DNA of 64,000 bases from Thermodesulfobacteriota bacterium. GTDB taxonomy: Bacteria; Desulfobacterota_D; UBA1144; Nemesobacterales; UBA2774. The notes beneath the pieces are model-generated. The model had not been told where the DNA came from. It saw only the letters and a program-made list of their open reading frames with translations, and searched no databases. Shown here in pieces: positions 5,577 through 60,227 of this stretch. The translations under genes and the position numbers were made by a program. Where the stretch lies: the NCBI GenBank assembly GCA_035325995.1, contig DAOKYU010000009.1, forward strand, positions 21,286-85,285, read 5' to 3'. Within the stretch, counting starts at the first letter, position 1; each line of letters starts with the position of its first letter.

Positions 5577-5779
5577 CATAACCCAAGTAGATATTGGCAT
5601 GTTCGCGCCGGAGCTCTCTCACACAACCCAAGTAAATATTGGCATGTCGAGCCCCAGGCAGAACCGGCCAAGCCCCGCAAACAGCCATTCCTTCGGCAGC
5701 GGCCCTCACATAAGCCAAGCAGATATTGCCATGTGTGTTCCGCGCCTGGAGCGCACAAGCCAAGCAGTTATAGCCATGT
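5577..5779. repeat. Four 26-bp direct repeats in two pairs, each pair 45 bp apart; candidate recombinase binding sites
   Basis: Repeat consensus CA(T/C)AA(C/G)CCAAG(T/C)A(G/A)(A/T)TAT(T/A)G(G/C)CATGT, copies at 5577-5602, 5622-5647, 5709-5734 and 5754-5779. Nearby at 5555-5568 is a GTGCGCATAAGCC dif-like XerC-arm. The array lies immediately 3' of the Xer-like recombinase gene. Confidence 0.65.
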
Positions 5780-16810: not shown

Positions 16811-16863
16811 CTGAACGCTCCCCGCAGGTCGCGGAGAGCACAGCAAACTGACCGGAGACGTTG

Positions 16864-39097: not shown

Positions 39098-40671
39098 TGT
39101 CGGATTGGTTCAAGGACAATCTGCTCGGCCTGCTGCCGCCGCTTTACGATCATAACGACGAAGCCGGTGACCTGCGCACCTTTCTGAGCCTTCCCGCTGG
39201 AACGCTCGACGAACTTAAGCAGGCCATCGACGAGTTCCCGACCATCTTCGATGTGGATCATTGCGACGAGCGTTTCCTGCCGCTGCTGGCGAGACTCGTC
39301 GGCCTCGAAGTGGACGGCACCTGTTCGCCGGACTGCCAGCGCCGCCGTGTGCGGGAGGCGGTCGAAATCTATCGTCGCAAGGGCACCATTCCGGCCATCG
39401 AGCGCGACTTCAACACGCTCGGCTGGAAGGGGGAACTGCAGGAGACCTTCCGCTCGGCGTTGCGTCTCAATGTCCGCTCCCGACTCAGCAACGCCAAGCT
39501 GCCCGGGCTGGTGTTCAGCCTCGGCGTGTTTCGCGTGCTGTGTCTCAACCAGACCGAAGGGCTGCGCGACGCCCTGGTGTTTCACCACCCGGCTGCCACA
39601 CGCTGTTTCTGGCTCCAGTTTCTCCTGGAATGGATCGAAGGCGGCGCGATGCTCGACTTCGGGCATGCCAACGCCGTGCGCCGGATCGTATTGGCGTTTC
39701 TCGACGAAACCTTCGTCCTTGGCCGCTCCTCGCTCGGTTCCTGCCGTCACCTGACCAGCAAGCAGAGGGCCTGGGAGCTGCTGCAACTCACCAGCACCAC
39801 GGAGATGCTCCCGGAAATCGACCGGGCCGCCGTGAAGGTCTCCCGTTTTCACGGCCGCCAGAACCGGATGCGCCTGAACCACAAGGCCCTCAACGACTGG
39901 CGGCTTCCGTACACCCGTGTCGGCGAGGATCGGGTTTCCTTCTGCACGCCCATCTACACCGGCCGCGATTTCGAGGGGGATGTGCTGGAAAGCGGCTTCG
40001 GGCTGGGCGAGAGCCATCTCAACCGTAAATCGCTGACCCATGGCGAGACCGCGCTGCGGTACTGCTTCCGGCAGAAGGATTTCTTTTTCGACACGCAGGC
40101 GGAACCGGTCGAGCGGGTGGAGGCCAAGTACGACCTGCGCCTGCCCTTGGAATCCCGGCACCGTCTCTGCTTCCAGCTCGGCCGCGCCAGGCTCAACGCT
40201 GGTCTCGACCTCACCGCCAACCAGGGCGGCATCAGCAATCTGCTGCTCGCCTCCACCGCTGGCTGCGACGCGGACGTCACCCTGGCCGTCGACCGGATCG
40301 ACCGATGGCGGCGGAGAGGGCCTGTGTTCCGGCTCAACGCGAACACCCTGAACACCCGGTATCTGAGCAATGCGAATCTGACCGGCGAACGGGCCTCGCT
40401 TGAAGTCTACGTGGACACGGGCTCTCTCCAGCGCCATCGGGTCGAGACCATGAAGCTGGGCGCAAGCCCGCTCAACACCACCGGCCTGCGTCTCTCTGTG
40501 GACCGGACCCGCCCCCTGCGCGTCAGCCGCATGCGCCTCAACCAGGCCGGATTCCGCTGGTCGCGGCCTTCCTATCGCTGGCTGTTCCGTCAGCAGGATC
40601 TGCACGCGCCGACGCAGGCCGGGTTCGAGGCCGCCAACAACAACTATCGCGCCACCCAGTGGCCCATCTGA
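39094..40671 (+). CDS. phage tail protein I (P2 gpI-like)
   Basis: LLPPLYDHND...RRRVREAVEIYRRKGT matches the Tail_P2_I pattern. Extra C-terminal domain. Confidence 0.6.
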   Translation: MMSDWFKDNLLGLLPPLYDHNDEAGDLRTFLSLPAGTLDELKQAIDEFPTIFDVDHCDERFLPLLARLVGLEVDGTCSPDCQRRRVREAVEIYRRKGTIPAIERDFNTLGWKGELQETFRSALRLNVRSRLSNAKLPGLVFSLGVFRVLCLNQTEGLRDALVFHHPAATRCFWLQFLLEWIEGGAMLDFGHANAVRRIVLAFLDETFVLGRSSLGSCRHLTSKQRAWELLQLTSTTEMLPEIDRAAVKVSRFHGRQNRMRLNHKALNDWRLPYTRVGEDRVSFCTPIYTGRDFEGDVLESGFGLGESHLNRKSLTHGETALRYCFRQKDFFFDTQAEPVERVEAKYDLRLPLESRHRLCFQLGRARLNAGLDLTANQGGISNLLLASTAGCDADVTLAVDRIDRWRRRGPVFRLNANTLNTRYLSNANLTGERASLEVYVDTGSLQRHRVETMKLGASPLNTTGLRLSVDRTRPLRVSRMRLNQAGFRWSRPSYRWLFRQQDLHAPTQAGFEAANNNYRATQWPI

Positions 40672-40681
40672 AGGAGAACCC

Positions 40682-41275
40682 ATGGCGATACATCTCTATC
40701 TTGACGAAGCGCTGACCCAGCAGATTTCCGAGGGGGATTTCAGCCGCCCCGAGGCCGAGAGCTACAACGGCACCGACGGCGACATCAAGGATCGGCAGCT
40801 CTACGTCGCTAACGAGCAGACGAGCCTCGCCTCGGCCATCGACGCGTCGCAGACATCCATCGCCCTGGCCGAACCGCGTTTTGCCGACGGCGAGCTCATC
40901 ATCATCGACGGCGAGCAGATGCTCGTCGAAAGCGGTGGCGGCACCGTCAATCTCACCGTGCAGCGGGGCGTGGCCAACACCGCTCCGGCCGCGCACGACG
41001 CCGGGACGACCGTCTATTCCGGCTACGACTACACCGGTCTGGTGCTCGATCCCATCGACGAAACCGGCACCGACGAATCGGTCTGGTACCGCCTGGCCCT
41101 GACCCAGGCCGAACTCGACACCGCCACCCAGGGCGCACCGCTCAATCTCGGCGACAAGGCATTCCAGCAGACGCTGTCCTTCTGGCGGCGCTGCACCGTG
41201 CTCCCGGGCACCCCGGTGCAAAACAAACTCGACATCAAGCTGCGCCTGACCGGCACGGAAAACCCGATTCTCTAA
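40682..41275 (+). CDS. hypothetical tail fiber-module protein
   Basis: AAGGAG RBS, ORF. Confidence 0.4.
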   Translation: MAIHLYLDEALTQQISEGDFSRPEAESYNGTDGDIKDRQLYVANEQTSLASAIDASQTSIALAEPRFADGELIIIDGEQMLVESGGGTVNLTVQRGVANTAPAAHDAGTTVYSGYDYTGLVLDPIDETGTDESVWYRLALTQAELDTATQGAPLNLGDKAFQQTLSFWRRCTVLPGTPVQNKLDIKLRLTGTENPIL

Positions 41276-41285
41276 GGAGGCCGCC

Positions 41286-42275
41286 ATGGCATACAACAGC
41301 ATTCAAGGACTTGCCCACGGTCGGCTCGACCTGCTCAATCAACTGCGGACCTTTCTGGTGACCACTACCGGCTGGACCCTGCACGACGACCAGTCGGCCG
41401 ACCCGCAGCCGTATTTCGTCTTCAAGTCGCACGGGGAATCCGGGGCCGAGGACGTCTATCTGCAGTTCCGTATCAGCGCCACCTCCGGGCGGATTCACGT
41501 CGCGGCATTCCAGTATTGGGACGCGGCCACCCACACCGGCGTCAACGAGGCTTCGCACACCAGTTACACCTACCTGCGGGTGGAGGACAGCGCCGACTTC
41601 ATCTTCTGGCTGTTCGCCGACCTGGACCACGTCTTCGTGGTGACCAAGCTCGTCTCCACCTACTACGGCCATTACAGCGGCTTGCTGAAACGGTTCTGGT
41701 CCGGGGCCGTCGCGCTCACGCAGGCTGCGGTCACCGCCGGAAGCGGCGTGGTGCTTCAGGTCAACGACGCCACCGTGGTCACGCCCGGACAGGACTATGT
41801 GATCAAGGACGACGCGGGCATCGAACGCGTGCGGGTGAGCGCCATCGACACCGCCGTCACGCCGAACACCATCACCGTCGAAACCCTCGTTCGGGATTAC
41901 GCCTCGGGAGCCAAGATCGGCGAGGACCCGCAGCCGGTCGTCAACAGCTACTACAACGCGCCGGGCACCTTCTACGCCGTGAACAAGTTCGACGGCTGGA
42001 CTTCCGCGTCCGGCCAGCAGGGCCGCTGCGGCGCGGCCCACGGCGGGCTCCAGGGTGAAACCGATCCGGAGATGCGCTACGGCACCACCATCCTCTTTCC
42101 CTGGCTCGCCTCGATGTCCGGTTCCGCCGTCTACCAGGAACTGCGCGGCGAACTCATCGAGATCTTCTCCGTGGGCGGCGGCAATGTCGCCTCGGAAGAC
42201 ACCATTCAAATCGGAACGGACAGCTACCGCGTGTTCAACCTGACCACCGGCGGCTGGTGCGCGGTGAAGGAGTAA
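41286..42275 (+). CDS. hypothetical tail fiber-module protein
   Basis: AAGGAGG RBS, 329 aa. Confidence 0.4.
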   Translation: MAYNSIQGLAHGRLDLLNQLRTFLVTTTGWTLHDDQSADPQPYFVFKSHGESGAEDVYLQFRISATSGRIHVAAFQYWDAATHTGVNEASHTSYTYLRVEDSADFIFWLFADLDHVFVVTKLVSTYYGHYSGLLKRFWSGAVALTQAAVTAGSGVVLQVNDATVVTPGQDYVIKDDAGIERVRVSAIDTAVTPNTITVETLVRDYASGAKIGEDPQPVVNSYYNAPGTFYAVNKFDGWTSASGQQGRCGAAHGGLQGETDPEMRYGTTILFPWLASMSGSAVYQELRGELIEIFSVGGGNVASEDTIQIGTDSYRVFNLTTGGWCAVKE

Positions 42276-42361
42276 CGCCATGGCAAATCAAAACGGAAAG
42301 CTCAAAACCGTCACCACGATCACCGGCCAGCGTCGCCCGGGAACGCTTGTGTCCATGAACC

Positions 42362-42859
42362 GTGGTCAGGCACTCAAGCTCAGCGGGAGGATTCGCCGTG
42401 GCCGTGCATAAGGGACAACTGGCATCCATCACCACCCGCAGAGGCATCCGGCGGCCGGAACTGCTCGCCATCGGCGCGGCGCAACCAGGAACGCTCTTCG
42501 AGCTGTTTTCCGGGGCACCGGCCAGGCGCACGGTGATGGTCCGGGCCGACAGCGCGGTGCGGGTCGCCCATCGGCTCGAACGTCGATCAGACCTCGCGCT
42601 TCGAGTGAACAACCGCCTGAACCGGAGCGCCGACCTGTGGCTCGTCGTCCATGGCCGTCTGGGCGTCGATGCCGACGTGGCGGTGCGGGTGACGAGTCCC
42701 TGGCAGCGGAGCATCGACACCAGCGTCCGGACATCCGGCGCACACATCAGCCGATCCGACACCGTTCAGCGCATCGCGATCCCGGCCGGACTGCTGGCCG
42801 ACACGCGCCAGATCCTGTTCGCGGTGCTCATCCATCAAGACCACGAAATTCAGACCTAA
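42362..42859 (+). CDS. hypothetical protein (start uncertain, GTG)
   Basis: ORF in gap between fiber-module genes. Arg-rich, weak. Confidence 0.25.
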   Translation: MVRHSSSAGGFAVAVHKGQLASITTRRGIRRPELLAIGAAQPGTLFELFSGAPARRTVMVRADSAVRVAHRLERRSDLALRVNNRLNRSADLWLVVHGRLGVDADVAVRVTSPWQRSIDTSVRTSGAHISRSDTVQRIAIPAGLLADTRQILFAVLIHQDHEIQT

Positions 42860-42871
42860 AGGAGAACAGCA

Positions 42872-43405
42872 ATGGCACTGGGACTCATCGTCAAAACCGG
42901 CCGGATACTGACGGCCAAACTCCTCCTCGGCCAGGCCGTGGACGGCATCACCCACTGCGCCATCGGCGACGGGGATGCCAGCTTCACCGACCCGCAGAAT
43001 CCGCCCGCGCCGGATATCGGCCAGACCGGGCTCAGAAACGAACGCGCCCGCAAGCGCTACTACAAGCGGACCTTCCTCAAGGAGGACGCCGAAGGGGCGC
43101 TCCTGGTCAATGGCGTGCGCTATCTCGAAACCGGCGAGGAGACCAACACCATCGGTGTCTTCTTCCGCTTCGACGAGGCCGAGGCCAACGGCATCACTAT
43201 CCGCGAATACGGCTTCTTCGGCGGCGACGTGCAGTACACGGCCAGCGTCACCGGGGATCTCGCCATGGGCGGCGTGTTCCATCAGGACACCAACCCGACC
43301 GGCGAGGTGCTGCGCCCGGGCTACCTGTACGAGGTGAAGAACATTCCCGACTTCAACAAGATTTCCGACACCCGCGTGGAGCTGGTCGGGATCATCAAGA
43401 TCTAA
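42872..43405 (+). CDS. hypothetical tail protein
   Basis: AAGGAG RBS, 177 aa preceding large fiber gene. Confidence 0.4.
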   Translation: MALGLIVKTGRILTAKLLLGQAVDGITHCAIGDGDASFTDPQNPPAPDIGQTGLRNERARKRYYKRTFLKEDAEGALLVNGVRYLETGEETNTIGVFFRFDEAEANGITIREYGFFGGDVQYTASVTGDLAMGGVFHQDTNPTGEVLRPGYLYEVKNIPDFNKISDTRVELVGIIKI

Positions 43406-43420
43406 CTGGAGGATTCAAAC

Positions 43421-46400
43421 ATGAGCATCTCACGCGAGACATTCGACCCGACCAAGAATTACAAGCGCATCCGTTACCATCAGGATCGCGACCTGCTGGA
43501 TTCCGAACTCAACGAGCAGCAGGACATCATCAATCTGGAGCGGCGCAAGATCGCCGACATCCTGTTCAAGGAAGGCTCCATCATCATGGGCCTCGAGGTC
43601 AGGGCGGCCGCCAACGTCCTGACCCTGGCCCCGGGCGTGGTCTACATCGACGGCCATCTGGAACAGGTGAGCGGCGCGACTCTGACCTATGACCCGGCCA
43701 CCACCAGCGGGGCCGACTACGTCTATGTGGAGCTGCTGAAGTACAACTACGGCTACACCCAGGACCCGGCCCTGATCAATCCGGCCACCGGCGAGCCCAC
43801 CGCCGAACGGGAAAAATGGGTTCTTTCTCTCAAGGCGACGGATACCAGCGGCCAGACGCTGCCCAACAACGTGGCCGAGCGCCGGGTGATCCCGATCTAC
43901 AAGTTCGACCGCGAGAGCGGAGACGTCACGCCCACGGTGCAGGAGAAGTCCAACCTCTACCTGCGGGATCTGCTGGGCACGCTGCCGGGCAGTCGGATCA
44001 CCGTCTCCTCGATCACCGAGGACCAGCTCTCCTTCGCCGCCGCAGAGGGGCTCAATTCCCTGATTCAGAACCTGGCCGAGCGCACCTTCGACCAGGCAGG
44101 AAGCTATCTGGTGCGGGGTTTCGACACCTTCATCGGCGGGGTCGACGACGACAGCGTGGAGGCGATCACCAACGCCGGACGCGCCTACATCCAGGGCTTC
44201 CGGCATCAGCGCGATCTGCCCACCTCGACCCTGGTGCCTAAATCCATCGCCACCAAGACGGTGCGCGGCGAGCAGAAGACCTTCGACATCAACAAGCGCC
44301 GCTATCCGGTCAACTCCACCCCGCTCAAGGAGACGACCCAGGTGGAGGCCATCGTCGAGATCACTCGCAACGTCACTCGCGGCTCGGTGGGCGGCGGCGA
44401 AGACCTGCTCGACCCCAATCCCGTGGTGGATATCCTCGAGGTCAGTCAGGGGGCGACCATCTTCCAGGAGGGCGTGGACTGGCAGCAGTCGGGCAACCAT
44501 GTCGATTGGCTCGGCTCCGGCAACGAACCGGCCATCGGCACCACCTACACGGTGCGCTGGACCTACACCAAGCAGATGATCAAGGGCACCGACTACGTGG
44601 ACAGCGGCTGGTTCGGGCAGGCCAACCATCCGGCGGCCGGAAACTACTTCTATCTGGTGACCGCCTACAACGCCACCGGCGAGACGGCCTTCAACGCCGC
44701 TGCGGTCATTGCCCGGGCCACCGCCGCCGGGGAGATGAACAAGCTCTCCTGGCTGCCGGTCAGCGGCGCGACCGGCTATCGCGTCTACCGGGCCGCCACC
44801 AACGGCGCACGGACCGACTACAAGCGCCTGATGGAACTGGGCAGCGAGGCGCTCTCCTACGTCGACGACGGCGTCGAGGAGATCGGCACCGCTTCGCCTC
44901 CGGCCACCAACACGGCCGGACTCACCATGTCGCCGGTCCAGCTCGAGATGGGCAACCTCAACGTGATTAACTTCGGGCGCGGCAGCCTCGGCGACCAGCC
45001 GGTGAACGGTTCCAATTGCAGCCTGGACTACGACTATTACCTTGGCCGCCGCGACATCGTTTACGCCACCACCACCGAGATCAAGCGGCTGGAAGGGGCT
45101 CCGGCGGATTTCCCGAAGCTTCCCATCGTGCCGGAAAACGCCCTGGGACTGTGCAGCATCGATTGCCCGCCCAACTCCACCGACATGGAGATCCGCAACT
45201 TCGGCCTGACCCGCATCACCATGGACCAGATCCACGACATCATTCAGGACGTCGAGGACCTGAAGTACAACGATGCCCAGTACCAGATGAACAACGAGCT
45301 GCAAAACCGGGACGCCCAGACCAAAAAAGGCATCTACTCGGACGACTTCTCGAACACCGCCCAGTCGGACATCTACCACGCCGAATGGGACGCCCGGGTC
45401 AACGAGATCGCCCGCTTCGTCGCGCCGGACCGCATTCCGCACTCTACGGTGCTCTCGGTCGATCAGGCGGGCAGCAACGCCAGCTTCTTCGGCAGCCTGG
45501 CGCTGCTGCCGGGCAATGAGACGGTGCTGGTGGAACAGAACGACTGGTCCGAAGAGCGCAACATCAACCCCTACGCGGTGTTCGACAAGCCCCCGGCCAT
45601 GCTGCAGATCACGCCCAACCTCGGGCGGCGCGGCCAGACCGGCATCGCCGTCACCGGCATCAACTTCACCCCGAGCAAATCCGGCATCGTGCTGCGCTGC
45701 GACGGCCAGGTGATGGCCAGCAACCTGATCAGCGACGAGGCCGGTCGGGTCAGCGCCTCCTTCACCATCCCGACCAACGCCCGCAATGGCAACCGTATCG
45801 TGGAGATGGCCGACGGCGTCTACTCGGCCCGGGCCAGCCTGCAGATCAACGATCCGCTGGTCATCACCCGCATCGAGCGCATCATCGAGAACCGCATCAT
45901 CCGCGTACCCGTGGTGCAGGTGGTCTGGCGCACCCAGACCATCTTCGTGCCCCGCGATCCACTGGCCCAGACCTTCAGCTTCACTCAAAACCAGGTGATC
46001 TCCAGCATCGGGCTGCAGTTTACCGCCAGGGACCCGAGCATCCCGGTCACGGTGCAGATTCGCGGCGTCACCACCGGTCTGCCCAACGGCGTGGTGTTCG
46101 CCGAGAAGGTGCTGGCCCCGAACGAGATCAGTCTGAGCGGCGAGACCCGCATTCGTTTCGACGACCCGTTCTACGCCGAGGCCAACACCAGCTATTCCGT
46201 GGTGCTGCTGACCAACAGCACCAATTACAAGGTGCGCACCGCCACTCTCGGCAAGATGGGCCGCTGGGGCATCATCACCCGCCAGACCTACATGGAAGGC
46301 GTGCTGCTGGAGAGCTCCAACGCCGAGACCTGGACGCCGCTCAACGGTTCCGACCTGGCGATGAAGATCTACGGTTACAACTTCCAGTCCGAGGGGATGA

Positions 46401-46969
46401 TCCGCTTCCAGCCGGTCACCGGCGTGCAGTTCTCCGACATCAACCTCGACGAATACTCGGCCATCCCCCAGGGCACCGGTCTCGACTGGGAATACTCCAC
46501 CGACGGCGGCGTGACCTGGGACGCCATGGTTCCCGCAGAGGAGGAGCGGCTGCCCAACCTCGCCACCCGGGTCCAGATCCGCGTGCGTCTGAGCAGCTCG
46601 CTCTCCAACGACACCCCGGCCATCAACTTCCGCGACGTCAACCTGGTGGGCTACCTCAATAAGACCACCGGGGCCTACCTGACCCGCGAGAACGAGCTGA
46701 CCCAGGGGGTGGAATCGACCAAGGCCTATGTGCAGATGCAAATCCCCAGCGGCACCACCCTGCAATGGTTCGCCAGCAACGACGGCGGCCTGACCTGGGA
46801 GGCGATGACCATCCAGGACACCCGGCCCATCGACGAGAACTGGACCGAGTACACCCTGGTGCGCACCTTCACCGACAACACCGGCAACAAGGTCCGTTAC
46901 AAGGCCGAGATGACCGGCACGCCGCTGATCTACCCGCGCATCCATTCGCTGGGCGCGACCCTGAGCTAA
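43421..46969 (+). CDS. large tail fiber / host-specificity protein (contains FN3-like segment)
   Basis: 1182 aa at distal end of tail module. LSWLPVSGATGYRVYRA FN3-like. Confidence 0.55.
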   Translation: MSISRETFDPTKNYKRIRYHQDRDLLDSELNEQQDIINLERRKIADILFKEGSIIMGLEVRAAANVLTLAPGVVYIDGHLEQVSGATLTYDPATTSGADYVYVELLKYNYGYTQDPALINPATGEPTAEREKWVLSLKATDTSGQTLPNNVAERRVIPIYKFDRESGDVTPTVQEKSNLYLRDLLGTLPGSRITVSSITEDQLSFAAAEGLNSLIQNLAERTFDQAGSYLVRGFDTFIGGVDDDSVEAITNAGRAYIQGFRHQRDLPTSTLVPKSIATKTVRGEQKTFDINKRRYPVNSTPLKETTQVEAIVEITRNVTRGSVGGGEDLLDPNPVVDILEVSQGATIFQEGVDWQQSGNHVDWLGSGNEPAIGTTYTVRWTYTKQMIKGTDYVDSGWFGQANHPAAGNYFYLVTAYNATGETAFNAAAVIARATAAGEMNKLSWLPVSGATGYRVYRAATNGARTDYKRLMELGSEALSYVDDGVEEIGTASPPATNTAGLTMSPVQLEMGNLNVINFGRGSLGDQPVNGSNCSLDYDYYLGRRDIVYATTTEIKRLEGAPADFPKLPIVPENALGLCSIDCPPNSTDMEIRNFGLTRITMDQIHDIIQDVEDLKYNDAQYQMNNELQNRDAQTKKGIYSDDFSNTAQSDIYHAEWDARVNEIARFVAPDRIPHSTVLSVDQAGSNASFFGSLALLPGNETVLVEQNDWSEERNINPYAVFDKPPAMLQITPNLGRRGQTGIAVTGINFTPSKSGIVLRCDGQVMASNLISDEAGRVSASFTIPTNARNGNRIVEMADGVYSARASLQINDPLVITRIERIIENRIIRVPVVQVVWRTQTIFVPRDPLAQTFSFTQNQVISSIGLQFTARDPSIPVTVQIRGVTTGLPNGVVFAEKVLAPNEISLSGETRIRFDDPFYAEANTSYSVVLLTNSTNYKVRTATLGKMGRWGIITRQTYMEGVLLESSNAETWTPLNGSDLAMKIYGYNFQSEGMIRFQPVTGVQFSDINLDEYSAIPQGTGLDWEYSTDGGVTWDAMVPAEEERLPNLATRVQIRVRLSSSLSNDTPAINFRDVNLVGYLNKTTGAYLTRENELTQGVESTKAYVQMQIPSGTTLQWFASNDGGLTWEAMTIQDTRPIDENWTEYTLVRTFTDNTGNKVRYKAEMTGTPLIYPRIHSLGATLS

Positions 46970-46981
46970 GGAGGCACGGCC

Positions 46982-47239
46982 ATGATCGTTCGACGCAAAG
47001 GCGGCCTGACCGAGTTCATCCCCACGCCGCAGGAGAAGCGCGACGGCCTGATCCGCGACAACGCCCTGGGCCTGCTGGAGAATCTGCACCAGCGCCTGGC
47101 GCGGCTGGAACGGGCGTCAAAGCTTCCGGCCACCGAAGCGGAGGCCTTCACGGCGCTGCTGGCGCGGATGCGGGCCGACGAGTCGCGCAACCTCGAGCTG
47201 CACGCCAGTCTGATCACCGGCGAAACTGCTTCCGGCTGA
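46982..47239 (+). CDS. small protein (possible fiber assembly factor)
   Basis: AAGGAGG RBS, last gene before terminator. Confidence 0.35.
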   Translation: MIVRRKGGLTEFIPTPQEKRDGLIRDNALGLLENLHQRLARLERASKLPATEAEAFTALLARMRADESRNLELHASLITGETASG

Positions 47240-47263
47240 CCGGCTCACTGCCACCGCCACCCC

Positions 47264-47301
47264 AGAAACCCCGGATACGGCCAGCCCGTTCCGGGGTTTC
47301 T
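47264..47301 (+). terminator. stem-loop terminator ending the phage late region
   Basis: AGAAACCCCGG...CCGGGGTTTCT 11-bp stem, followed by AT-richer intergenic region. Confidence 0.45.
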
Positions 47302-47488
47302 GCCGTCTTTGCTTCGCCCAATCCGGACAAACTCGCAAATCATTGAAAATAAACGTGTTAAATGTCGGCTTCGGCTGTTCTTCTACTTGATTTGTGTCCG
47401 GAAAGAAGCATTCATTCATGGTGTAAGCAGAGGCTGAAAAGCCTTGCCAGACAACGACTTAGAAGCGCCATGAACGACGGAGGCACGC

Positions 47489-48448
47489 ATGAACCTGAAA
47501 GAGATCCACTACGGGATCGAGATCGAGACCGTAAAACGCACCCGGGAACAGATCGCCTGGGCCATCCACTCGGTAGTGGGCGGCACGGTCCGCCATGTCG
47601 GCATCCCCAGCAGCTATGACCCCTGGGAGGTCGAGGACCTGCGCGGCCGCGTCTGGAAGGTGGTGGGGGACGCTTCCCTGACCAGCGTCCCGGCCCATCT
47701 GCGGGCCGAGGTGGTCAGCCCGGTGCTCGGCTACGACGACATCCCTCAACTGCAGGAGGTGGTCCGGGCCATCCGCCGCGCCGGAGGCAAGATCAACAGC
47801 CAGTGCGGCATTCACATCCATATCGACGCCGCGCCCTTCGACGGCAGACACCTGGGTAACCTGGCCAAGATCATCTACAAGCAGGAGCCGCTGATCCTTC
47901 ACGCCCTCGGCATCAGCCGCGACAGGCTCAATCGCTACACCCGGCCGGTCAGCGACGAACTGATCCAGCGTATCGAACAGCATCGCCCCCGCACCAAGGA
48001 CCAGCTCAACCGCATCTGGTACGGCTACCACAACCGCCAGCCCCAGCACTACGACAACAGCCGCTACCACGGGGTCAACCTGCACAACGTCTGGTACCGG
48101 GGCACGGTGGAGTTCCGCTGGTTCGAGGCGACCCTCCATGCGGGACGGATCAAGGCTTACCTGCAATTCTGCCTCGCCGTCGCCGCCAAGGCGCTCAATG
48201 GTCGGGCAGCCTCCAGCCGCAAGCGGGACTTCGATCCTCAGAGCGCCAAGTACGACTTCCGGGTCTTCTTGCTCCACCTCGGCCTGATCGGCGACGAGTT
48301 CAAGACCGCCCGCAAGCATCTGATGACCAACATGCCGGGTGACGCCGCCTTCAAGAACGGACGGCCCAAACCGGAGGACGTCCTTCCGGACGAAACGACC
48401 ACCAATCTCACCAACGAGGCCGGGCAAGTTCCCGGCCTCACTGTTTAA
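47489..48448 (+). CDS. amidoligase (Amidoligase_2 / glutamine-synthetase-like fold)
   Basis: N-terminal YGIEIE (GxExE) motif, GIHIHID, and size ~320 aa. Confidence 0.6.
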
Positions 48449-48459
48449 GGAGGTGCCCC

Positions 48460-48981
48460 ATGAAGATTCTGATCCGCTCCACCACGCTGGACGGCGAACC
48501 GATTCCCGGCAGTGGGGAAACCATCCAGGCCGCCGACTGCCTCGAAGTTGTCGAGCTGATGCGCGGCCAGACGCCGTTTACCGCCAGCCGAGCGCCCCGG
48601 GACTACATGACCGAAGTGCTTTCCGGCATCGAAGGCGGGCCGCCCCAGCCATTGCCGGAGGAAGTAGCCGCTGCGGCCGCCGAGTTTCTCACCCGTCTGG
48701 CGCGGCACGGCCTGATCGAATTCCTGCCCGACGACAAGGCCAGCGATCCCTGGCCGGAACGCTTCCTCGAAGCTCTGGAAACGGTGCGGCTCTCCGGGCG
48801 CACCAACATGCTCGACCACCCGGAGGTGACCCGGCTGACCGCCGATATGGGCTACCCGGAGGTGGCCGAGTGGCTGGCGGACCACCGGCGCGAATACGCG
48901 GCCTTCGTCCTCGAAGGGACGAGACCGCTCGGTAAGAACTTCGGCGGCAAGGAGGACCCGGCTCCATGTGCGGACAAGTAG
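48460..48981 (+). CDS. hypothetical protein of the amidoligase operon
   Basis: Sandwiched and overlapping (16 nt) with the GATase gene. Confidence 0.4.
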   Translation: MKILIRSTTLDGEPIPGSGETIQAADCLEVVELMRGQTPFTASRAPRDYMTEVLSGIEGGPPQPLPEEVAAAAAEFLTRLARHGLIEFLPDDKASDPWPERFLEALETVRLSGRTNMLDHPEVTRLTADMGYPEVAEWLADHRREYAAFVLEGTRPLGKNFGGKEDPAPCADK

Positions 48982-49763
48982 GCATCATCTTCGGCCGCAA
49001 GCGCAGACGGCCCGACGAGCGGGATTACCTGCGCGAGCTCTTCATCCGCATGCTGCTGCACAGCGAGGAGCGCGGACCGCACGCCTCCGGTCTGGCCTGG
49101 CTCAAGACTGACGGCAGCCACCGCATCTTCAAACGGCCGATGCGGGCGCACGAGCTGGTCTACGAGAAGCCGTTCCAGGAGCTGCTCGGACAGGTCGACA
49201 ACGAGACTACCATCCTCATGGGGCACACCCGCTGGCGCACCCGGGGCAACGAGTTCAACAACCGCAACAACCATCCCATCCGGGCCGGGATCGTCATCGG
49301 CACCCACAACGGCACCATCTACAACGCCGATTATCTGTTCCGCCGTCTCGGGCTGCCGCGCTACGCCGAGGTGGACAGCGAGCTGATCTTCCGTCTGGCC
49401 GACCGCTTCGCGCCCGAAGGCCCCATCGACCAGGAGGGCCTGAAGAAGGCGCTTGCCCTCTGTCGCGGTCAGATGAGCGCCGTGCTGGCCTCACGGCTCG
49501 ACCCCGGCACCATCACCGTACTCAAGGGCAACAAGCCACTCTGCCTGCGCATCCACCGCCAACACCGGGTGGTGCTCTACGCCTCGGACGACGCCTTCAT
49601 CGACTTCGCCGTGGACTTTGATCCGGGCTGGCGCGAGCTGGAGGTGCCGCCCATGACCATGCTCACCATCCGCCACGAGGATGTGCGGGCCATCGACAAC
49701 AGCGAATTCCGCTTCATACCCCAGGAGCGCAAAGGGACACTGCCCGAAGGAGTGAATGCATGA
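48966..49763 (+). CDS. class-II (Ntn) glutamine amidotransferase-like protein
   Basis: N-terminal MCGQVGI (Cys2 nucleophile), Ntn-hydrolase-like layout. Confidence 0.65.
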   Translation: MCGQVGIIFGRKRRRPDERDYLRELFIRMLLHSEERGPHASGLAWLKTDGSHRIFKRPMRAHELVYEKPFQELLGQVDNETTILMGHTRWRTRGNEFNNRNNHPIRAGIVIGTHNGTIYNADYLFRRLGLPRYAEVDSELIFRLADRFAPEGPIDQEGLKKALALCRGQMSAVLASRLDPGTITVLKGNKPLCLRIHRQHRVVLYASDDAFIDFAVDFDPGWRELEVPPMTMLTIRHEDVRAIDNSEFRFIPQERKGTLPEGVNA

Positions 49764-50299
49764 ACATTGGAGACAGCGTAAAGCTGAACACAAACCCGGA
49801 AGACAGTCCCGAGACCATCCTCCGACTCTTCGTCTACGGCACCCTGAAACGGGGCTACTGGAACCATCAACGCTTCTGCGCCCAGGCCCGCAGCATCGAA
49901 CCGGCCGTGGTCTGGGGCAGACTCTATCATCTCCACGCCGGATTCCCGGCCCTCGAGGTGCCCGAAGGTCTGATCCTGGCCAGGGGCACCGCCGATCCAC
50001 TGGCCGACGCCCGCAGGCAGCAGGAGATCGACACGCCACGCTTCGGCCGCCCGACTGGGGACTGGGATCTGATCCATGGGGAACTGGTGACCTTCACCGA
50101 TCCGCAGCGCGACCTGCCGCCCATCGACCTGCTGGAAGGCTTCCGACCCGGCGGGCACAGCATGTACCAGCGGGTGATGGTGGCTTCGCTACAAGGCACA
50201 ACCGCATGTGCGGTATGGGTTTACATCATGTGTGCGCCTCAAAACGGCCACCGGGTCACCAACGACAATCAGGCCGTTTTTTGGAAAAGTCGGCACTAA
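49760..50299 (+). CDS. gamma-glutamyl cyclotransferase (GGCT/AIG2-like)
   Basis: FVYGTLKRGYWNH motif. ATGA-coupled to the GATase gene. Confidence 0.7.
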   Translation: MNIGDSVKLNTNPEDSPETILRLFVYGTLKRGYWNHQRFCAQARSIEPAVVWGRLYHLHAGFPALEVPEGLILARGTADPLADARRQQEIDTPRFGRPTGDWDLIHGELVTFTDPQRDLPPIDLLEGFRPGGHSMYQRVMVASLQGTTACAVWVYIMCAPQNGHRVTNDNQAVFWKSRH

Positions 50300-50436: not shown

Positions 50437-50640
50437 ATGGATGAGAGATGGCTGACGGTCGATGACATTTGCAAATATCTGAATGTAAGCAACGAGACGG
50501 TCTACAAGTGGATCGAACAACGGGCTATGCCCGGTCATCGCGTCGGCCGTCGCTGGATGTTCAAACAAGACGAAGTGGACGAATGGGTCCGCTCCGGCGG
50601 TGCGGCTGACAAATCCGATAAGCCGGACACCGAGCAGTAA
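50437..50640 (+). CDS. excisionase/AlpA-family HTH DNA-binding protein
   Basis: 67 aa, LTVDDICKYLNVSNETVYKWIEQRAMPGHRVGRRWMF. Direct repeats (G/T)TAATTTG(T/C)GG upstream. Confidence 0.6.
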   Translation: MDERWLTVDDICKYLNVSNETVYKWIEQRAMPGHRVGRRWMFKQDEVDEWVRSGGAADKSDKPDTEQ

Positions 50641-50649
50641 GGAGCGACC

Positions 50650-54899
<4,250 letters not shown>

Positions 54900-54946
54900 A
54901 TGGGTCACGGGTCGCGAGTCATGAGTCACGAGTCGAAGGATTGAAG

Positions 54947-55321
54947 ATGGCAAGGATTGAAAAGTTCGAGGATATCGAAGCATGGCAGCGGGCAAGACAG
55001 CTCGCCAAAGCCGTGTATGCCGTTACATCGGAAGGAAAGTTCGCTCGTGATTTCGGACTGCGTGACCAGATTCAAAGAGCAGCCGTTTCGGTGATGTCCA
55101 ACATTGCCGAAGGATTTGAGCGTGGTGGTGATGTTGAATTCCGGCGATTCCTTGCCATCGCAAAAGGCTCTGCCGGTGAAGTCAAAGCGCAGCTTTATGT
55201 GGCTCTCGATGCCGGGCTGATTGACCAGACTGCTTTCGACTCGCTTTACAAATCAGCCACAGAAACAGGAAACCTCATTGGCGGTTTCATGAAATATCTG
55301 AGCAAAGGGATTAACAAATGA
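54947..55321 (+). CDS. four-helix-bundle protein (23S rRNA-intervening-sequence protein family)
   Basis: FEDIEAWQRARQLAKAVY...SNIAEGFERG...AKGSAGEV family hallmarks. Confidence 0.6.
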   Translation: MARIEKFEDIEAWQRARQLAKAVYAVTSEGKFARDFGLRDQIQRAAVSVMSNIAEGFERGGDVEFRRFLAIAKGSAGEVKAQLYVALDAGLIDQTAFDSLYKSATETGNLIGGFMKYLSKGINK

Positions 55322-58164
55322 GCAGACATCAAGACCAGCCAACGCTGTTTCCGACAGAAGGACCCGCGACCCGCGACTCGGGACCCGTGACCTGCTTAGG
55401 CATGACATTCGAGAACGACGAAACCCGCCGCGCCCACTTTACCGAGGAGCTGCGTAAGAAGCTGCAGGACCCGGAGTTCCGCAAGATCGAAGGCTTTCCC
55501 ATCGGCAGCGATGAGGACATCCTGAACCTGAGCGATCCGCCGTATTACACCGCCTGTCCGAATCCGTGGATCGCCGACTTCATCACCGAGTGGGAGGCGC
55601 AGAAGCCGGAACAGCCCGAAGGCAATCACTACCACCGTGAGCCTTTTGCGACCGACGTGAGCGAAGGAAAAACCGATCCAATTTATCAGGCACATGCATA
55701 TCACACAAAGGTGCCTCATAAAGCCATCATGCGTTACATCCTCCACTACACCCAACCAGGAGATATCGTTTTTGATGGCTTTGCTGGAACTGGTATGGCT
55801 GGCGTTGCTGCTCAACTTTGTTCAGATAAAAATGCAGTAGCAAGCCTGGGATACAGAATTGGTGCTGATGGCATCGTGTTTAAAACAGAGGAAGATGAAA
55901 ACGGGAAACAAATTAGCTCGCCATTCTCAAAGATAGGGCTTCGTTATAGCATCTTGAACGATTTATCTACAGTTGCAGCATTTGTTGCCTCAAATTACAC
56001 GATCCCTTTCGACACAGGAATCTTCAAAAAAGAATCTTCCAGTCTCCTGAAAACACTGCGGAAAAGAATAGGCTGGATGTACGAAACCCTCCATAGTGAT
56101 GGGAAGACCAAAGGCATAATTAACTTTACTGTATGGAGCGAGGTTTTTGCGTGTCATCAATGTGGTTCTGACATCGTTTTTGTGGATGAAGCATTTGACC
56201 ATGATGAAAAGAAGGTCAGAGATGTTTTTCCATGTCCCTCTTGCGCGGCTGAGTGCTCAAAAAACAGTCTGCAGCTACTCTACGAATCTGTTTTTGATGC
56301 TGCCTTAAATGAAACTATTCAAGCGCCTAAGCGAGTACCTGTCTTAATAAACTACAGCATTGGAAAAAACAAATACGACAAAAAACCAGATAGCTTGGAC
56401 CTGGAGATTATTGCGAAGATTAACTCCATCGACCGACATCCAAACGTCCCAACAATGGAACTCCCACCGATGCAGATGACTCGTGTGGGAAGAATGCAAC
56501 CAGCGAAAATTACACATATCCACCATTTCTTTAACAAAAGAGCCTCGCATGCTTTGGGCGAAATGTGGAAAATTGCGTTAGAGTCACCTACGCATCGAAT
56601 GAAAAACATGATGCTGTTTTTTGTCGAGCAAGCAATATGGACTGCATCTGTCTTAAATAGATATCGTCCGTCTGGATACTCACAAGTCAATCAGTATCTA
56701 GCTGGAGTTTTTTATGTCCCATCTCAAAACGCAGAACCAAGTCCTTGGTATGTACTGAACGGAAAATCGACTCGATTGCCGAAGGCTTTTACTGAATTTG
56801 AGCAGTCTCATTCAACTTTAATCAACAATGGGGATTGCGGCGCTTTGCCAGTGCCAGATGCATGCATTGATTACATCTTCACGGACCCACCTTTTGGCGA
56901 AAACATCTACTATTCAGACCTGAACATACTCATAGAGTCTTGGCATAAAGTTAAGACTAACGAAAAGCCTGAAGCTATTGTCGACCGAGTTCGAGGTAAG
57001 TCACTAATTGACTACCAGAAACTAATGACCGATTGCTTCAAGGAGTATTATCGAATCCTTAAACCTGGACGATGGATGACGGTTGAGTTTCACAACTCAA
57101 AAAATAGCGTCTGGAATACTATACAAGAAGCTTTGCAGCATGCAGGATTTGTTGTTGCTGATGTAAGGACCCTTGATAAAAAACAAGGTTCTTTTCAGCA
57201 GGTAAGCAGCGCAAGCGCCGTCAAACAGGATTTGGTCATTTCTGCATATAAGCCAAATGGTGGTCTTGAAAATCGATTTAAGAGCGAAGCTGGCACAGAA
57301 AGTGGTGTATGGGATTTTGTTCGGACACACTTAAAGCAACTTCCAGTTTTTTCCTACAAAGGCGGAAGAGCGGAAGCAATTGTTGAACGTCAAAATTACC
57401 TCTTGTTTGACCGAATGGTCGCCTTTCACGTCCAACGAGGTGTACCTGTCCCAATCTCTTCTTCTGAGTTTTACCTTGGGCTTGCGCAGCGATTTGCTGA
57501 GCGTGATGGAATGTTCTTCCTCGCAGACCAGGTTGCTGAATATGATAGAAAGCGGATGCTGTGCAAAGAACTGATTCAAATCTCGCTGTTCGTATCTGAT
57601 GAAGCATCTGCAATACAGTGGCTACGAAACTCTCTAAAAAGCAAGCCGCAGACATTCCAGGAACTACACCCCCTGTTTATGCGCGAAATTAATGGTTGGA
57701 ACAAAAACGAGCAACCGTTGGAATTATCGCTTTTACTCGAACAAAACTTTCTGCGCTACGACGGCAAAGGCCCCGTGCCCGAGCAGATCCACGCCTACCT
57801 CTCCACCAACTGGAAAGAGCTGCGTAACCTGCCGAAGGATGATCCGACCCTGGTCGCCAAGGCTCGTGACCGTTGGTACGTGCCCGACCCCAACAAGGCG
57901 GGCGACCTGGAGAAGCTGCGCGAGAAGGCGCTGCTCAAGGAGTTCGAGGAATACAAAGAGGTCAAGAAGAAGCTCAAGGTCTTCCGCCTGGAAGCTGTCC
58001 GCGCCGGATTCAAGAAAGCCTGGCAGGAACGCGACTACGCCGTCATCGTCGCCGTGGCCGACAAAATTCCCAACAACGTCCTGGAAGAAGATCCCAAGCT
58101 GCTCATGTGGTACGACCAGGCGGTAACAAGAATGGGCGATGGTAATGAAGGGAGGCTGTTATGA
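55318..58164 (+). CDS. N6-adenine DNA methyltransferase with internal Zn-ribbon (COG1743-like); mosaic GC composition
   Basis: FDGFAGTGMAG (motif I), CHQCGSD...CPSCAAEC Zn ribbon, FTDPPFGENIYYSD (motif IV). Core 55.67-57.74 kb is AT-rich, both ends GC-rich. Confidence 0.7.
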   Translation: MSRHQDQPTLFPTEGPATRDSGPVTCLGMTFENDETRRAHFTEELRKKLQDPEFRKIEGFPIGSDEDILNLSDPPYYTACPNPWIADFITEWEAQKPEQPEGNHYHREPFATDVSEGKTDPIYQAHAYHTKVPHKAIMRYILHYTQPGDIVFDGFAGTGMAGVAAQLCSDKNAVASLGYRIGADGIVFKTEEDENGKQISSPFSKIGLRYSILNDLSTVAAFVASNYTIPFDTGIFKKESSSLLKTLRKRIGWMYETLHSDGKTKGIINFTVWSEVFACHQCGSDIVFVDEAFDHDEKKVRDVFPCPSCAAECSKNSLQLLYESVFDAALNETIQAPKRVPVLINYSIGKNKYDKKPDSLDLEIIAKINSIDRHPNVPTMELPPMQMTRVGRMQPAKITHIHHFFNKRASHALGEMWKIALESPTHRMKNMMLFFVEQAIWTASVLNRYRPSGYSQVNQYLAGVFYVPSQNAEPSPWYVLNGKSTRLPKAFTEFEQSHSTLINNGDCGALPVPDACIDYIFTDPPFGENIYYSDLNILIESWHKVKTNEKPEAIVDRVRGKSLIDYQKLMTDCFKEYYRILKPGRWMTVEFHNSKNSVWNTIQEALQHAGFVVADVRTLDKKQGSFQQVSSASAVKQDLVISAYKPNGGLENRFKSEAGTESGVWDFVRTHLKQLPVFSYKGGRAEAIVERQNYLLFDRMVAFHVQRGVPVPISSSEFYLGLAQRFAERDGMFFLADQVAEYDRKRMLCKELIQISLFVSDEASAIQWLRNSLKSKPQTFQELHPLFMREINGWNKNEQPLELSLLLEQNFLRYDGKGPVPEQIHAYLSTNWKELRNLPKDDPTLVAKARDRWYVPDPNKAGDLEKLREKALLKEFEEYKEVKKKLKVFRLEAVRAGFKKAWQERDYAVIVAVADKIPNNVLEEDPKLLMWYDQAVTRMGDGNEGRLL

Positions 58165-60130: not shown

Positions 60131-60227
60131 CTATGAGGCGCGTTACATTCAAAACCTCACCAATAATCGACATAAACTTGTCCGACATGGGTGCTTGTAA
60201 TTGCTTAGCGTGGATTGGAGGGGAATA

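Follow-up and report, generated by a model that had tools for sequence, protein, structure and literature searches.

We propose that four co-oriented genes at positions 47489-50299 of the window (the whole 64,000-nucleotide stretch of Thermodesulfobacteriota DNA that was analysed) form an accessory phage module for making and removing an L-gamma-glutamyl amide linkage, a reading to which we assign a probability of about 0.5. The open reading frame list holds exactly four + strand frames in this interval, in agreement with the original prediction of a four-gene operon. Gene 1 (47489-48448, 319 aa) encodes an Amidoligase_2 carboxylate-amine ligase of the GS/GCL/PafA fold, gene 2 (48460-48981, 173 aa) a non-catalytic two-domain protein, gene 3 (48966-49763, 265 aa, starting MCGQVG) a stand-alone class-II (Ntn) glutamine amidotransferase-type domain (GATase), and gene 4 (49760-50299, 179 aa, containing LFVYGTLKRG) a gamma-glutamyl(amine) cyclotransferase of the AIG2/GGACT family (GGCT). 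Genes 1 and 2 are separated by an 11-nt gap containing AAGGAGG, genes 2 and 3 overlap by 16 nt, and genes 3 and 4 share a 4-nt ATGA; the overlapping starts predicted for the operon are thus found at two of its junctions but not at that between genes 1 and 2.

All four genes have Pfam matches well over the cut-offs, and the PHROGs assignments agree. When the cassette is compared with five copies that are ~96% identical to it, dN/dS is 0.03-0.10 for the amidoligase, 0.11-0.18 for gene 2, 0.10-0.16 for the GATase and 0.22-0.41 for the GGCT. Purifying selection acts on all four genes, and these values indicate that we are dealing with real genes and not with chance open reading frames of high-GC DNA.

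The glutamine-synthetase-like fold foreseen for gene 1 is recovered both by profile and by structural modelling. The protein scores 241.5 bits against Amidoligase_2 (PF12224; cut-off 22), with residues 5-231 aligned to positions 2-244 of the 245-position profile, and it belongs to PHROG 2443 (5.6e-96); residues ~297-319 form a disordered tail. The modelled fold is that of the glutamate-cysteine ligases, glutamine synthetases and PafA, and the top structural neighbours of the model, at 11-16% sequence identity, are YbdK/GCS2, the plant, yeast and E. coli GCL enzymes, GshAB, GS, gamma-glutamylmethylamide synthetase and PafA/Dop. At the sequence level the amidoligase matches no solved (PDB) ligase structure. 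Acidic, His and Arg residues that are invariant in 34 amidoligase sequences (E11, E13, H109, H111, E133, R192, H199, E208 and R210) are candidates for the metal, ATP and acyl-phosphate sites. Every one of the top fold neighbours activates the gamma-carboxylate of glutamate, and glutamate is the probable acid substrate suggested by them. Given this fold, gene 1 is most economically read as an enzyme that uses ATP to build an L-gamma-glutamyl amide on an amine.

Gene 3 matches GATase_6 in Pfam with 77.9 bits (cut-off 27; 8.9e-22) and contains this domain only, with no fused synthase domain in its 265 residues. It aligns with the glutaminase domain of GlmS (1xff, 9e-9) through the motif pairs HTRW/HTRW, HNGTIYN/HNGIIEN and EVDSE/ETDTE, so that the equivalents of GlmS Arg73, Asn98-Gly99 and Asp123 are R89, N115-G116 and D137. 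These positions are invariant, as are C2, H87, H114, S138 and E139, in 17 diverse copies that include one from an Arthrobacter phage, and the nucleophilic Cys directly follows the initiator Met. Gene 4 matches GGACT (PF06094) with 62 bits (cut-off 22.8; 1e-16) in two stretches, and carries a ~45-aa insertion at residues ~66-104; YGTLKRG and HGELV, the latter at the position of the catalytic Glu, are kept across clades. A tblastn search of phages with the GGCT gave no match, and there is no sequence-level link between it and solved structures. Thus, the class-II amidotransferase recognised from its MCG start and the gamma-glutamyl cyclotransferase recognised from FVYGTLKRG are both upheld, and all three enzyme families pass the curated Pfam cut-offs in the HMM check that had been proposed for them.

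The 173-aa product of gene 2, which the original prediction described as uncharacterised, has the predicted length but is not featureless. It is predicted to be folded and consists of an N-domain (residues 1-~95, 48460-48744, + strand), a helical DUF5049 domain (residues 105-153, 48772-48918, + strand; 50.9 bits in Pfam, cut-off 28.7) to which the match in the C-terminal half of the protein is confined, and an acidic disordered tail. Two small domains are joined in gene 2; in distant cassettes each of them recurs as a partner gene of its own. Gene 2 carries no catalytic signature and cannot be linked by sequence to solved structures, and its absence from Hahella and from Arthrobacter phages implies that it is inessential to the chemistry. 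The protein ends in CADK, and we considered whether it might be a Pup- or LysW-like carrier modified at a C-terminal CA-K site. We rejected this idea, since the same bases encode the GATase start (ATG-TGC-GG) together with its Shine-Dalgarno sequence; the overlap with the start codon forces the motif, and its conservation is an artefact. In Lentisphaerae loci genes 2 and 3 no longer overlap, yet a relic ATGTGC persists.

The cassette appears to be controlled separately from the tail genes that precede it. A 40-nt hairpin at 47263-47302 (+ strand), 3' of an 85-aa open reading frame (46982-47239), folds with -29.8 kcal/mol (z = -4.56, with none of 200 shuffles as good) and would terminate the tail-fibre operon; a strict terminator scan did not call it, on account of its bulge and loop. 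Diverged relatives have a non-homologous hairpin with a T-run at the matching position. Downstream lies a conserved, AT-rich, promoter-like control region (47343-47415, + strand), identified by comparing clades, in which the blocks TTGAAAATAAASGTGTTAAATGT ... CTTGMTTTSTG ... GCATTCAT are near-invariant between clades that are only ~75% identical elsewhere. A 23-nt motif of this region occurs once in the window, with 0 occurrences expected by chance. The predicted terminator is therefore present, whereas the predicted promoter is not a canonical one: a scan for sigma-70 promoters ahead of the cassette found none, and the conserved block stands in its place. A riboswitch or other known RNA leader was also considered and set aside, Rfam matches being at chance level only. 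The motif CTTCCGGTAAGTAAC, which the phage repeats in seven copies, is absent from the control region. Because of the terminator, the conserved block and the absence of the seven-copy motif, we suggest that the cassette is regulated on its own and would be transcribed from its own control region, apart from the late operons.

The carrier is a temperate, sheath-bearing myovirus with a tyrosine recombinase, a RecD/primase replication module and a 799-aa methyltransferase. We rejected the idea of a Mu-like phage carrying a mom-like gene at its right end, as the recombinase and the RecD/primase module are present and a transposase is not. The cassette follows the baseplate and tail-fibre genes, and tail genes precede it in every related locus. 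It is the final conserved module of the phage family, with variable cargo beyond, so that its predicted location at the phage right end is accurate for the family but not for the window, where BREX genes of the same element follow. This cargo is a type-3 BREX system in the window (BrxF, BrxC and PglXI; PADLOC-DB 2.0), whereas sister elements have a type-1 BREX system, restriction genes or host DNA at this place; BREX lies directly downstream of the cassette in 35 of 42 grouped loci, the contig of the window included. The cassette is placed between two cargo slots, one for mercury resistance and one for BREX. In most of the ~96%-identical loci the nucleotide identity stops at 50184, a recombination breakpoint in the 3' end of gene 4 where alternative cargo modules take over from the conserved phage sequence; the regions beyond fall into a few discrete groups, and the C-terminal ~35 residues of the GGCT exist in several alleles.

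The element is ~96% identical across several bacterial phyla, and the cassette is present in cultured lysogens, among them Ectothiorhodospira shaposhnikovii DSM 243, Desulfosarcina alkanivorans PL12 and an Achromobacter isolate. No near-identical phage was found among GenBank phages. Homologues of the amidoligase number more than 6,000. It has matches in 104 phage records (all below 60% identity, the best at 42%) and in at least 479 stretches of IMG/VR viral contigs, but in only 4 of 72,556 plasmids; with its constant position after tail genes, this abundance in phages and viral contigs bears out the prediction that the operon is mobile and does not belong to host core metabolism. Among prophages of Thermodesulfobacteriota, Proteobacteria, Lentisphaerae and others, clades whose amidoligases are as little as ~70-74% identical, and whose GGCTs are only 44-55% identical, still keep the gene order. 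More distant cassettes in IMG/VR consist of the amidoligase, the GGCT and a small gene resembling the N-domain, without a GATase, which marks the ligase/cyclotransferase pair as the core. All four open reading frames are intact in each of the 20 genome loci that retain the upstream tail gene, and the amidoligase, the GATase or both are truncated in all four loci that have lost the phage and kept BREX (L032, L038, L042 and L047). We propose that the cassette serves the phage rather than the host, although the four decayed copies may be mere deletion end points.

In the scheme that we favour, the amidoligase would use ATP to convert the gamma-carboxylate of L-glutamate to an acyl phosphate, which would be captured by an amine, R-NH2, to give L-gamma-Glu-NH-R. 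The GATase, with its intact glutamine pocket (nucleophile Cys1, an Arg to bind the alpha-carboxylate, an Asp to bind the alpha-amino group and an Asn-Gly oxyanion hole), would act on a compound bearing a free L-glutamyl head, either converting glutamine to the glutamate needed by the ligase or hydrolysing the gamma-glutamyl amide; a second removing enzyme would be superfluous, so that a role as feeder or ammonia donor is favoured. The GGACT-type cyclotransferase, from the chemistry of its family, would strip the gamma-glutamyl group as 5-oxoproline and restore R-NH2. Gene 2 may be a modular adaptor or regulator: from one cassette to the next its two domains are rearranged, separated or lost. 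None of the four proteins has a signal-peptide-like N-terminus when the sequences are read by eye, and the GATase requires its Cys after Met1, so that the proteins are presumably cytoplasmic. Together with the near-identical copies in hosts of several phyla, this leads us to guess at a lysine- or diaminopimelate-type epsilon-amino group on a pan-bacterial peptide or protein, such as a stem-peptide precursor or a protein lysine, as the acceptor. Directed evolution of a single P. aeruginosa phage struck its amidoligase and GATase genes in both lines (PMC11450229). With a small amine as substrate, the ligase and cyclotransferase would together be a futile cycle. A more specific version, in which the module is a targeted writer and eraser of a single gamma-glutamylation on a macromolecular amine, with the gene-2 domains as interchangeable adaptors and a benefit for the multi-phylum host range, is one that we hold only tentatively and consider unlikely as it stands. 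Under that version the modified amine would sit either on a lysine of a protein, from the host or the phage, or on diaminopimelate in cell-wall precursors.

How else might these enzymes be combined? In known enzymes such as GlmS, PurF and AsnB the class-II domain is an ammonia donor, and the GATase here has all the residues of a working glutaminase and a start that lies within the last bases of gene 2, which directly follows the ligase gene, in a conserved order. It could therefore be half of a split glutamine-dependent amidotransferase, and the amidoligase would use the ammonia that it supplies to turn an ATP-activated carboxylate into its amide (R-COOH to R-CONH2). By analogy with GatD/MurT or LtsA, that carboxylate might for example be the one on D-iso-glutamate or diaminopimelate in a cell-wall precursor, in the sense of a cell-wall modification against superinfection, and a cell-wall hypothesis is repeated in papers citing Iyer 2009 (PMC5498523, PMC11945000, PMC10580990). 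Such an arrangement leaves the GGCT without a role, yet the GGCT and the amidoligase are the more widely conserved pair and the GATase is wholly absent from many cassettes; nor do we see an envelope-targeting signal in the four proteins or, by Pfam, the ATP-grasp enzyme and second ligase of the proposed cell-wall module. We regard this reading as credible but improbable. A purely metabolic module is rather less easily defended. In the gamma-glutamyl cycle, GCL and GGCT catalyse consecutive steps, and glutamate-cysteine ligases are the closest folds to the amidoligase, so that the three enzymes could be chained, with no further partner, from glutamine to glutamate (GATase), gamma-glutamyl-X (ligase) and finally 5-oxoproline and X (GGCT). 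A module of this type would reprogramme or drain the glutamine, glutamate and ATP pool, or handle a polyamine or amino acid. An auxiliary-metabolic or nitrogen role has been claimed for a phage with an amidoligase, a GATase, a GGCT and a glutathione synthase (PMC10945688), but the claim is correlative. The net result would be a waste of ATP with no obvious benefit to the phage, a plain shunt would not be expected to keep a conserved non-catalytic partner such as the gene-2 domains, and decay of the cassette after phage loss speaks against a metabolic gene that benefits the host. We therefore think it a poor candidate.

The neighbourhood of the cassette invites a reading as defence or as toxin and antidote expressed in the lysogen, in which the ligase modifies an essential target or a component of an incoming phage, the cyclotransferase reverses the modification, and the cassette joins the BREX cargo. 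Its control region is separate from the late genes, it lies between the mercury-resistance and BREX slots with BREX directly downstream in those 35 of 42 loci, and the pairing of a ligase with an enzyme able to reverse its action recalls the writer/eraser logic of toxin-antitoxin systems. However, no family among the PADLOC-DB 2.0 defence models matches any of the four proteins, so that we rejected a known defence system. An obligate functional link to BREX was rejected as well, since the cassette also stands beside restriction or host genes without BREX and in Arthrobacter phage Kovu. Unlike the flanking cargo, it is a fixed component of every lineage in the phage family, and it decays where BREX outlasts the phage; related triads occur in Kovu, and distantly related amidotransferase genes lie in the early region of Pseudomonas podoviruses. 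This makes a defensive role quite doubtful. Finally, an element that crosses many restriction barriers might profit from DNA hypermodification, with the ligase placing glutamate or an amide on a modified phage base and so evading restriction or BREX, and in gut Firmicutes phages the amidoligase adjoins DNA methyltransferase genes. In or beside the cassette, however, we found no hydroxymethylase, kinase/pyrophosphorylase, DpdA-type transglycosylase or nucleotide-binding domain; structural matches were below significance, and the phage already has its 799-aa methyltransferase. We consider this very improbable.

Comparison with known systems places the cassette among a wider set of phage triads. 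In gp96-98 of Arthrobacter phage Kovu the same three Pfam families are adjacent and co-oriented, likewise at the right end of the genome, and the GATase has the same invariant residues, with 35% identity to that of the cassette over 57% of its length. The order in Kovu is GGCT-ligase-GATase without gene 2, as against ligase-gene 2-GATase-GGCT, and in the Kovu GGCT the ~45-aa insertion is missing and Thr occupies the aligned position of the catalytic Glu. OM43 phages have a relative of the triad type with PF12224 and PF13522 (PMC10580990). For LUZ24/PA11-like Pseudomonas phages, phiEco32 and the Pseudoalteromonas phages RIO-1 and HP1, two papers summarise a "peptidoglycan modification" module credited to Iyer 2009 and Hardies 2013 (PMC5498523, PMC11945000) that shares a gamma-glutamyl amidoligase, a type-II amidotransferase and a GGCT with the cassette and is proposed there to make and break unusual peptide bonds. 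As described, it comprises 5-7 genes, among them an ATP-grasp enzyme and a further COOH-NH2 ligase (PMC11945000, PMC5498523), whereas the stretch from the terminator to BREX holds only four genes here, none of which is an ATP-grasp or GCS2 enzyme by Pfam. It is said to lie among the early and DNA-metabolism genes of lytic podoviruses (PMC5498523), in contrast to a cassette that follows the tail genes of a temperate myovirus, and the GATases are 25-27% identical.

Outside phages, the gamma-glutamyl cycle (GshA/YbdK and a cyclotransferase) has no sequence-level similarity to the cassette, which lacks a glutathione synthetase, is phage-borne and has a dedicated small partner protein. The pupylation system (PafA, Dop and Pup) likewise combines a ligase, an eraser (a deamidase) and a small partner, and makes a gamma-glutamyl-epsilon-lysine bond. 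In contrast to Pup, however, gene 2 encodes a folded protein and not a disordered tag, with no C-terminal GGQ/GGE, and the eraser in the cassette is a GGCT, whose fold differs from that of Dop. In butirosin biosynthesis, the ligase BtrJ adds a transient gamma-glutamyl protecting group that the GGCT-fold enzyme BtrG removes as 5-oxoproline, and a ligase is thus paired with a remover of the AIG2/GGCT family as in the cassette. BtrJ is, however, an ATP-grasp enzyme from a large biosynthetic cluster and takes as substrate an intermediate bound to a carrier protein, and neither a cluster nor a carrier protein surrounds the cassette.

The enzyme triad is already known from many phages and is routinely annotated. 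It was reportedly first noted by Iyer, Abhiman, Burroughs and Aravind in 2009, by comparative genomics. The later papers on phage triads that were consulted trace the idea to that work and offer hypotheses only (PMC5498523, PMC11945000, PMC10580990, PMC10945688), consistent with the original prediction that such triads had been described but not resolved biochemically. Among the papers from 2022 on that mention "amidoligase" and were examined by title and abstract, none contained a biochemical characterisation of the phage module. What is new beyond the original prediction is the fusion in gene 2, the artefactual nature of CADK, the decay of the cassette after phage loss and its ~96% identity across phyla.

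For more than 15 years, phage sets of ligase, amidotransferase and cyclotransferase have been annotated as cell-wall modifiers, superinfection blocks or nitrogen AMGs, with no substrate demonstrated. The cassette is a minimal form, with one ligase in place of three; it is also under strong constraint, occurs in cultured lysogens and has a defined control region, and is for these reasons well suited to working out the chemistry. A macromolecular acceptor would mean that phages direct a post-translational or cell-wall modification of a new type, and a metabolite as acceptor would at last allow the AMG claims to be tested.

Profile searches bear out the enzyme families originally predicted for the four-gene set, whose open reading frames lie co-oriented on the plus strand at 47489-50299. 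Gene 1 (47489-48448) is an amidoligase (Amidoligase_2, 241.5 bits), gene 3 (48966-49763) a class-II glutamine amidotransferase (GATase; GATase_6) and gene 4 (49760-50299) a gamma-glutamyl cyclotransferase (GGCT; GGACT), and gene 2 (48460-48981) matches DUF5049 over residues 105-153 only; all four matches are far above the Pfam cut-offs and the PHROGs agree. Tight coupling with overlapping starts holds for genes 2 and 3 (16 nt) and genes 3 and 4 (4 nt), but genes 1 and 2 are separated by an 11-nt gap containing a Shine-Dalgarno sequence. Against five ~96%-identical copies, dN/dS is 0.03-0.10, 0.11-0.18, 0.10-0.16 and 0.22-0.41 for genes 1 to 4, respectively. Since these values are low and comparable with those of the neighbouring tail protein (0.04-0.15), the four ORFs are true genes. 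We judge the earlier interpretation as a whole to be correct.

The three enzymes are intact, and the sole chemical denominator common to them is an L-gamma-glutamyl amide. The GATase can be aligned with the glutaminase domain of GlmS; Cys1, the HTRW arginine, the Asn-Gly pair and the Asp that binds the alpha-amino group are all retained. None of these residues varies, not even in the copy from the Arthrobacter phage, which argues that the GATase binds glutamine or some other molecule bearing a free L-glutamyl head. The GGCT retains YGTL and the G-E catalytic position, and carries a conserved insertion of ~45 residues. At its C-terminus the amidoligase has a disordered tail of variable length (residues ~297-319, 48380-48448), in which many clades keep a short 'TEAG' motif.

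Homologues of gene 2 occur in a 173-aa form and in a 113-aa form without DUF5049. When IMG/VR was scanned with the amidoligase profile and annotated by local HMMs, stretches with amidoligase identity of at least 60% had amidoligase, the N-terminal domain of gene 2 (with or without DUF5049), GATase and GGCT, and those at 45-57% had amidoligase, GGCT and then a 78-90-aa gene resembling the N-terminal domain, with no GATase. The ligase/cyclotransferase core is conserved. The two domains of gene 2 also occur there as separate genes, and DUF5049 by itself; gene 2 is not present in Hahella or Arthrobacter phage Kovu. It has no conserved polar residues suggesting catalysis and no significant structural neighbour, and we read it as a modular adaptor or regulator. 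Its C-terminal 'CADK' was considered as a modification site and rejected, the bases at 48966-48981 encoding both this end and, in another frame, the GATase start (ATG-TGC-GG, MCGQV). Where genes 2 and 3 have moved ~100 nt apart, as in Lentisphaerae loci (L005, 6320-6348), a relic ATGTGC is still present.

A 40-nt hairpin at 47263-47302 (-29.8 kcal/mol, z -4.6) closes the tail-fibre operon, and relatives of ~75% identity have another hairpin and T-run at the same position. The AT-rich block at 47343-47415, nearly unchanged across the ~75%-identical clades, occurs once within the window and matches no Rfam family. The motif CTTCCGGTAAGTAAC, probably a promoter or regulator site specific to the phage, has seven plus-strand copies in the window ahead of other phage operons (3682, 4775, 9716, 16794, 22190, 30631 and 37618; 0.02 expected by chance), each inside a longer similar stretch of ~45 nt between operons, and was not found ahead of the cassette. 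Given the terminator, the cassette's own control block and the missing motif, the cassette is therefore a unit under separate control. The predicted terminator thus stands, but the block does not match the sigma-70 consensus and a promoter of the cassette's own is only plausible. A small leader hairpin at 47431-47444 (AGGCT-GAAA-AGCCT) is replaced in the 77%-identical clade by GGCTT-AAACRC-AAGCC, pairing being kept through changed bases; the whole leader folds no better than shuffles (z -1.1).

A search with the gene-2 family gave 57 genome loci and 23 IMG/VR loci. In the closest clade, nucleotide identity is ~96% from the tail genes up to 50184, a point within the 3' end of gene 4, and in most loci stops there. 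What lies beyond sorts into a few discrete groups: type-3 BREX (9 loci), type-1 BREX with BrxA/B/C (26 loci), another module, or host genes (TetR/efflux, for example). At the very junction where the window has type-3 BREX, sister elements have type-1. GGCT ends in one of several alternative tails of ~35 residues, the window-like tail in type-3-BREX loci and other tails in the inspected type-1-BREX and host-flanked loci. On the other side, between terminator and control block (47303/47333), some loci hold merA and merT/merP-like genes on the opposite strand, encoding mercuric reductase and a MerT/HMA-domain transporter (L013, 4053-6873; L042, 4589-6748); two more (L067, L081) have a same-sized insert at this junction, and L092/L093 have five unknown genes. 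The cassette is therefore a fixed module, with a cargo slot on either side. It was placed at the phage right end, and no part beyond it is conserved in the whole phage family, but in the window type-3 BREX follows.

Upstream of the cassette lies a myovirus late region with terminase, portal, a MuF-fused head protein, major head protein, sheath, baseplate and a DUF4815 tail protein. The 1529-aa head protein (11312-15901; PHROG 6577) combines a Mu-F-like domain at its N-terminus with a long extension. Between its gene and that of the major head protein stands a gene for a 799-aa DNA methyltransferase (16861-19260). The replication module (PDDEXK nuclease, AAA_24, DUF669, ERCC4, RecD-like helicase, primase) is just left of the window. 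Between replication and packaging modules, rather than at a prophage end, lies a tyrosine recombinase gene (5981-6895, minus strand), with three 45-nt direct repeats (5549-5770) a few hundred bases beyond its 3' end; an AAA_21 ATPase and RloB, by their domains a candidate OLD/AbiL-like defence pair, are inserted there at 1303-3245. Downstream of the cassette, from 50437 to 62063 and beyond, come an HTH_17 gene and type-3 BREX (BrxF, BrxC, a 23S_rRNA_IVP-family protein and PglXI). The methylase part of this system looks swapped because homology with type-3 sister loci falls off near 54.9 kb. Low-GC (43-51%) AAA_15/AAA_21 genes follow the BREX genes, the first (58161-59240) with AriA/PtuA-like matches.

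More distant relatives have the cassette at a matching position. It follows a DUF4815 tail gene in the 77%-DNA-identity clade and a Laminin_G_3 tail protein, with host genes after it, in Lentisphaerae prophages; in a further clade it precedes host cytochrome genes. Amino acid identity to the window in the closest, 77%-DNA, Lentisphaerae-type and L092/L093 clades is 98-99, 84, 74 and 70% for the amidoligase, 96-98, 74, 54 and 61% for GATase, 80-91, 58, 54 and 49% for GGCT, and 94-98, 56, 50 and 37% for gene 2. All four ORFs are full-length in 20/20 genome loci retaining the tail gene, and the amidoligase and/or GATase is truncated in 4/4 loci that have BREX but have lost the phage genes (L032, L038, L042, L047). 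The amidoligase family is found in 104 phage records and at least 479 IMG/VR stretches and is nearly absent from plasmids (4/72,556). The cassette is linked with the phage and, as predicted, is tied to this mobile element rather than to host core metabolism.

The phage arm (~39000-50184) is ~92-97% identical in nucleotide sequence across several phyla (compared with L009-L048 and L066-L080). Its carriers include the complete chromosome of Desulfosarcina alkanivorans, isolates of Ectothiorhodospira, Dichelobacter, Thiohalocapsa and Achromobacter, 2.7-Mb Limisphaerales (Verrucomicrobiota) and 1.16-Mb Hydrogenedentales contigs, and MAG contigs of Synergistaceae and Leptospiraceae. The GC content of the phage block in D. 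nodosus is 61.7%, against 41.5% and 35.6% in the two flanks. For a tailed prophage it is unusual to be spread over so wide a range of hosts at 92-97% identity.

We suggest that the ligase would join the gamma-carboxylate of L-glutamate onto an amine, that the GATase would supply glutamate from glutamine or hydrolyse the adduct, and that GGCT would take the adduct off as 5-oxoproline. A split amidotransferase amidating a carboxylate would leave GGCT without explanation, and DNA hypermodification fits poorly with a gene set in which base-activating enzymes are not present. If the genes formed a small-molecule gamma-glutamyl shunt or AMG, ATP would be wasted, and existing claims of this kind are correlative only (PMC10945688). 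As a lysogen defence or toxin-antidote module, the cassette has no PADLOC match and decays where BREX persists. For the gamma-glutamyl ligation and release that we propose, we favour, with low confidence, a universal epsilon-amine as acceptor, belonging either to a cell-wall precursor or to a lysine in a protein, because the proteins, having in our reading no signal-peptide-like N-termini, are presumably cytoplasmic and near-identical copies occur in hosts of several phyla.

The enzyme triad itself is already known: as originally stated, it was described before, later papers crediting it to Iyer et al. 2009 (PMC5498523, PMC11945000, PMC10580990, PMC11318856), and we found no biochemical characterisation in the literature consulted, up to mid-2026. 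One experimental hint comes from a directed-evolution study of a P. aeruginosa phage, both lines of which acquired missense changes in the genes for amidoligase and amidotransferase (PMC11450229). In Arthrobacter phage Kovu, the right end of the genome carries GGCT, amidoligase and GATase. The 'peptidoglycan modification' module of LUZ24/phiEco32/RIO-1 differs from the cassette in having 5-7 genes, including an ATP-grasp enzyme and a second ligase, in lying among early genes, and in a GATase only 25-27% identical to that of the window. What our analysis adds is gene 2's putative adaptor domains, the explanation of 'CADK' as an artefact of gene overlap, the two cargo slots beside the cassette, its phage-linked decay, and the cross-phylum spread of the carrier phage.
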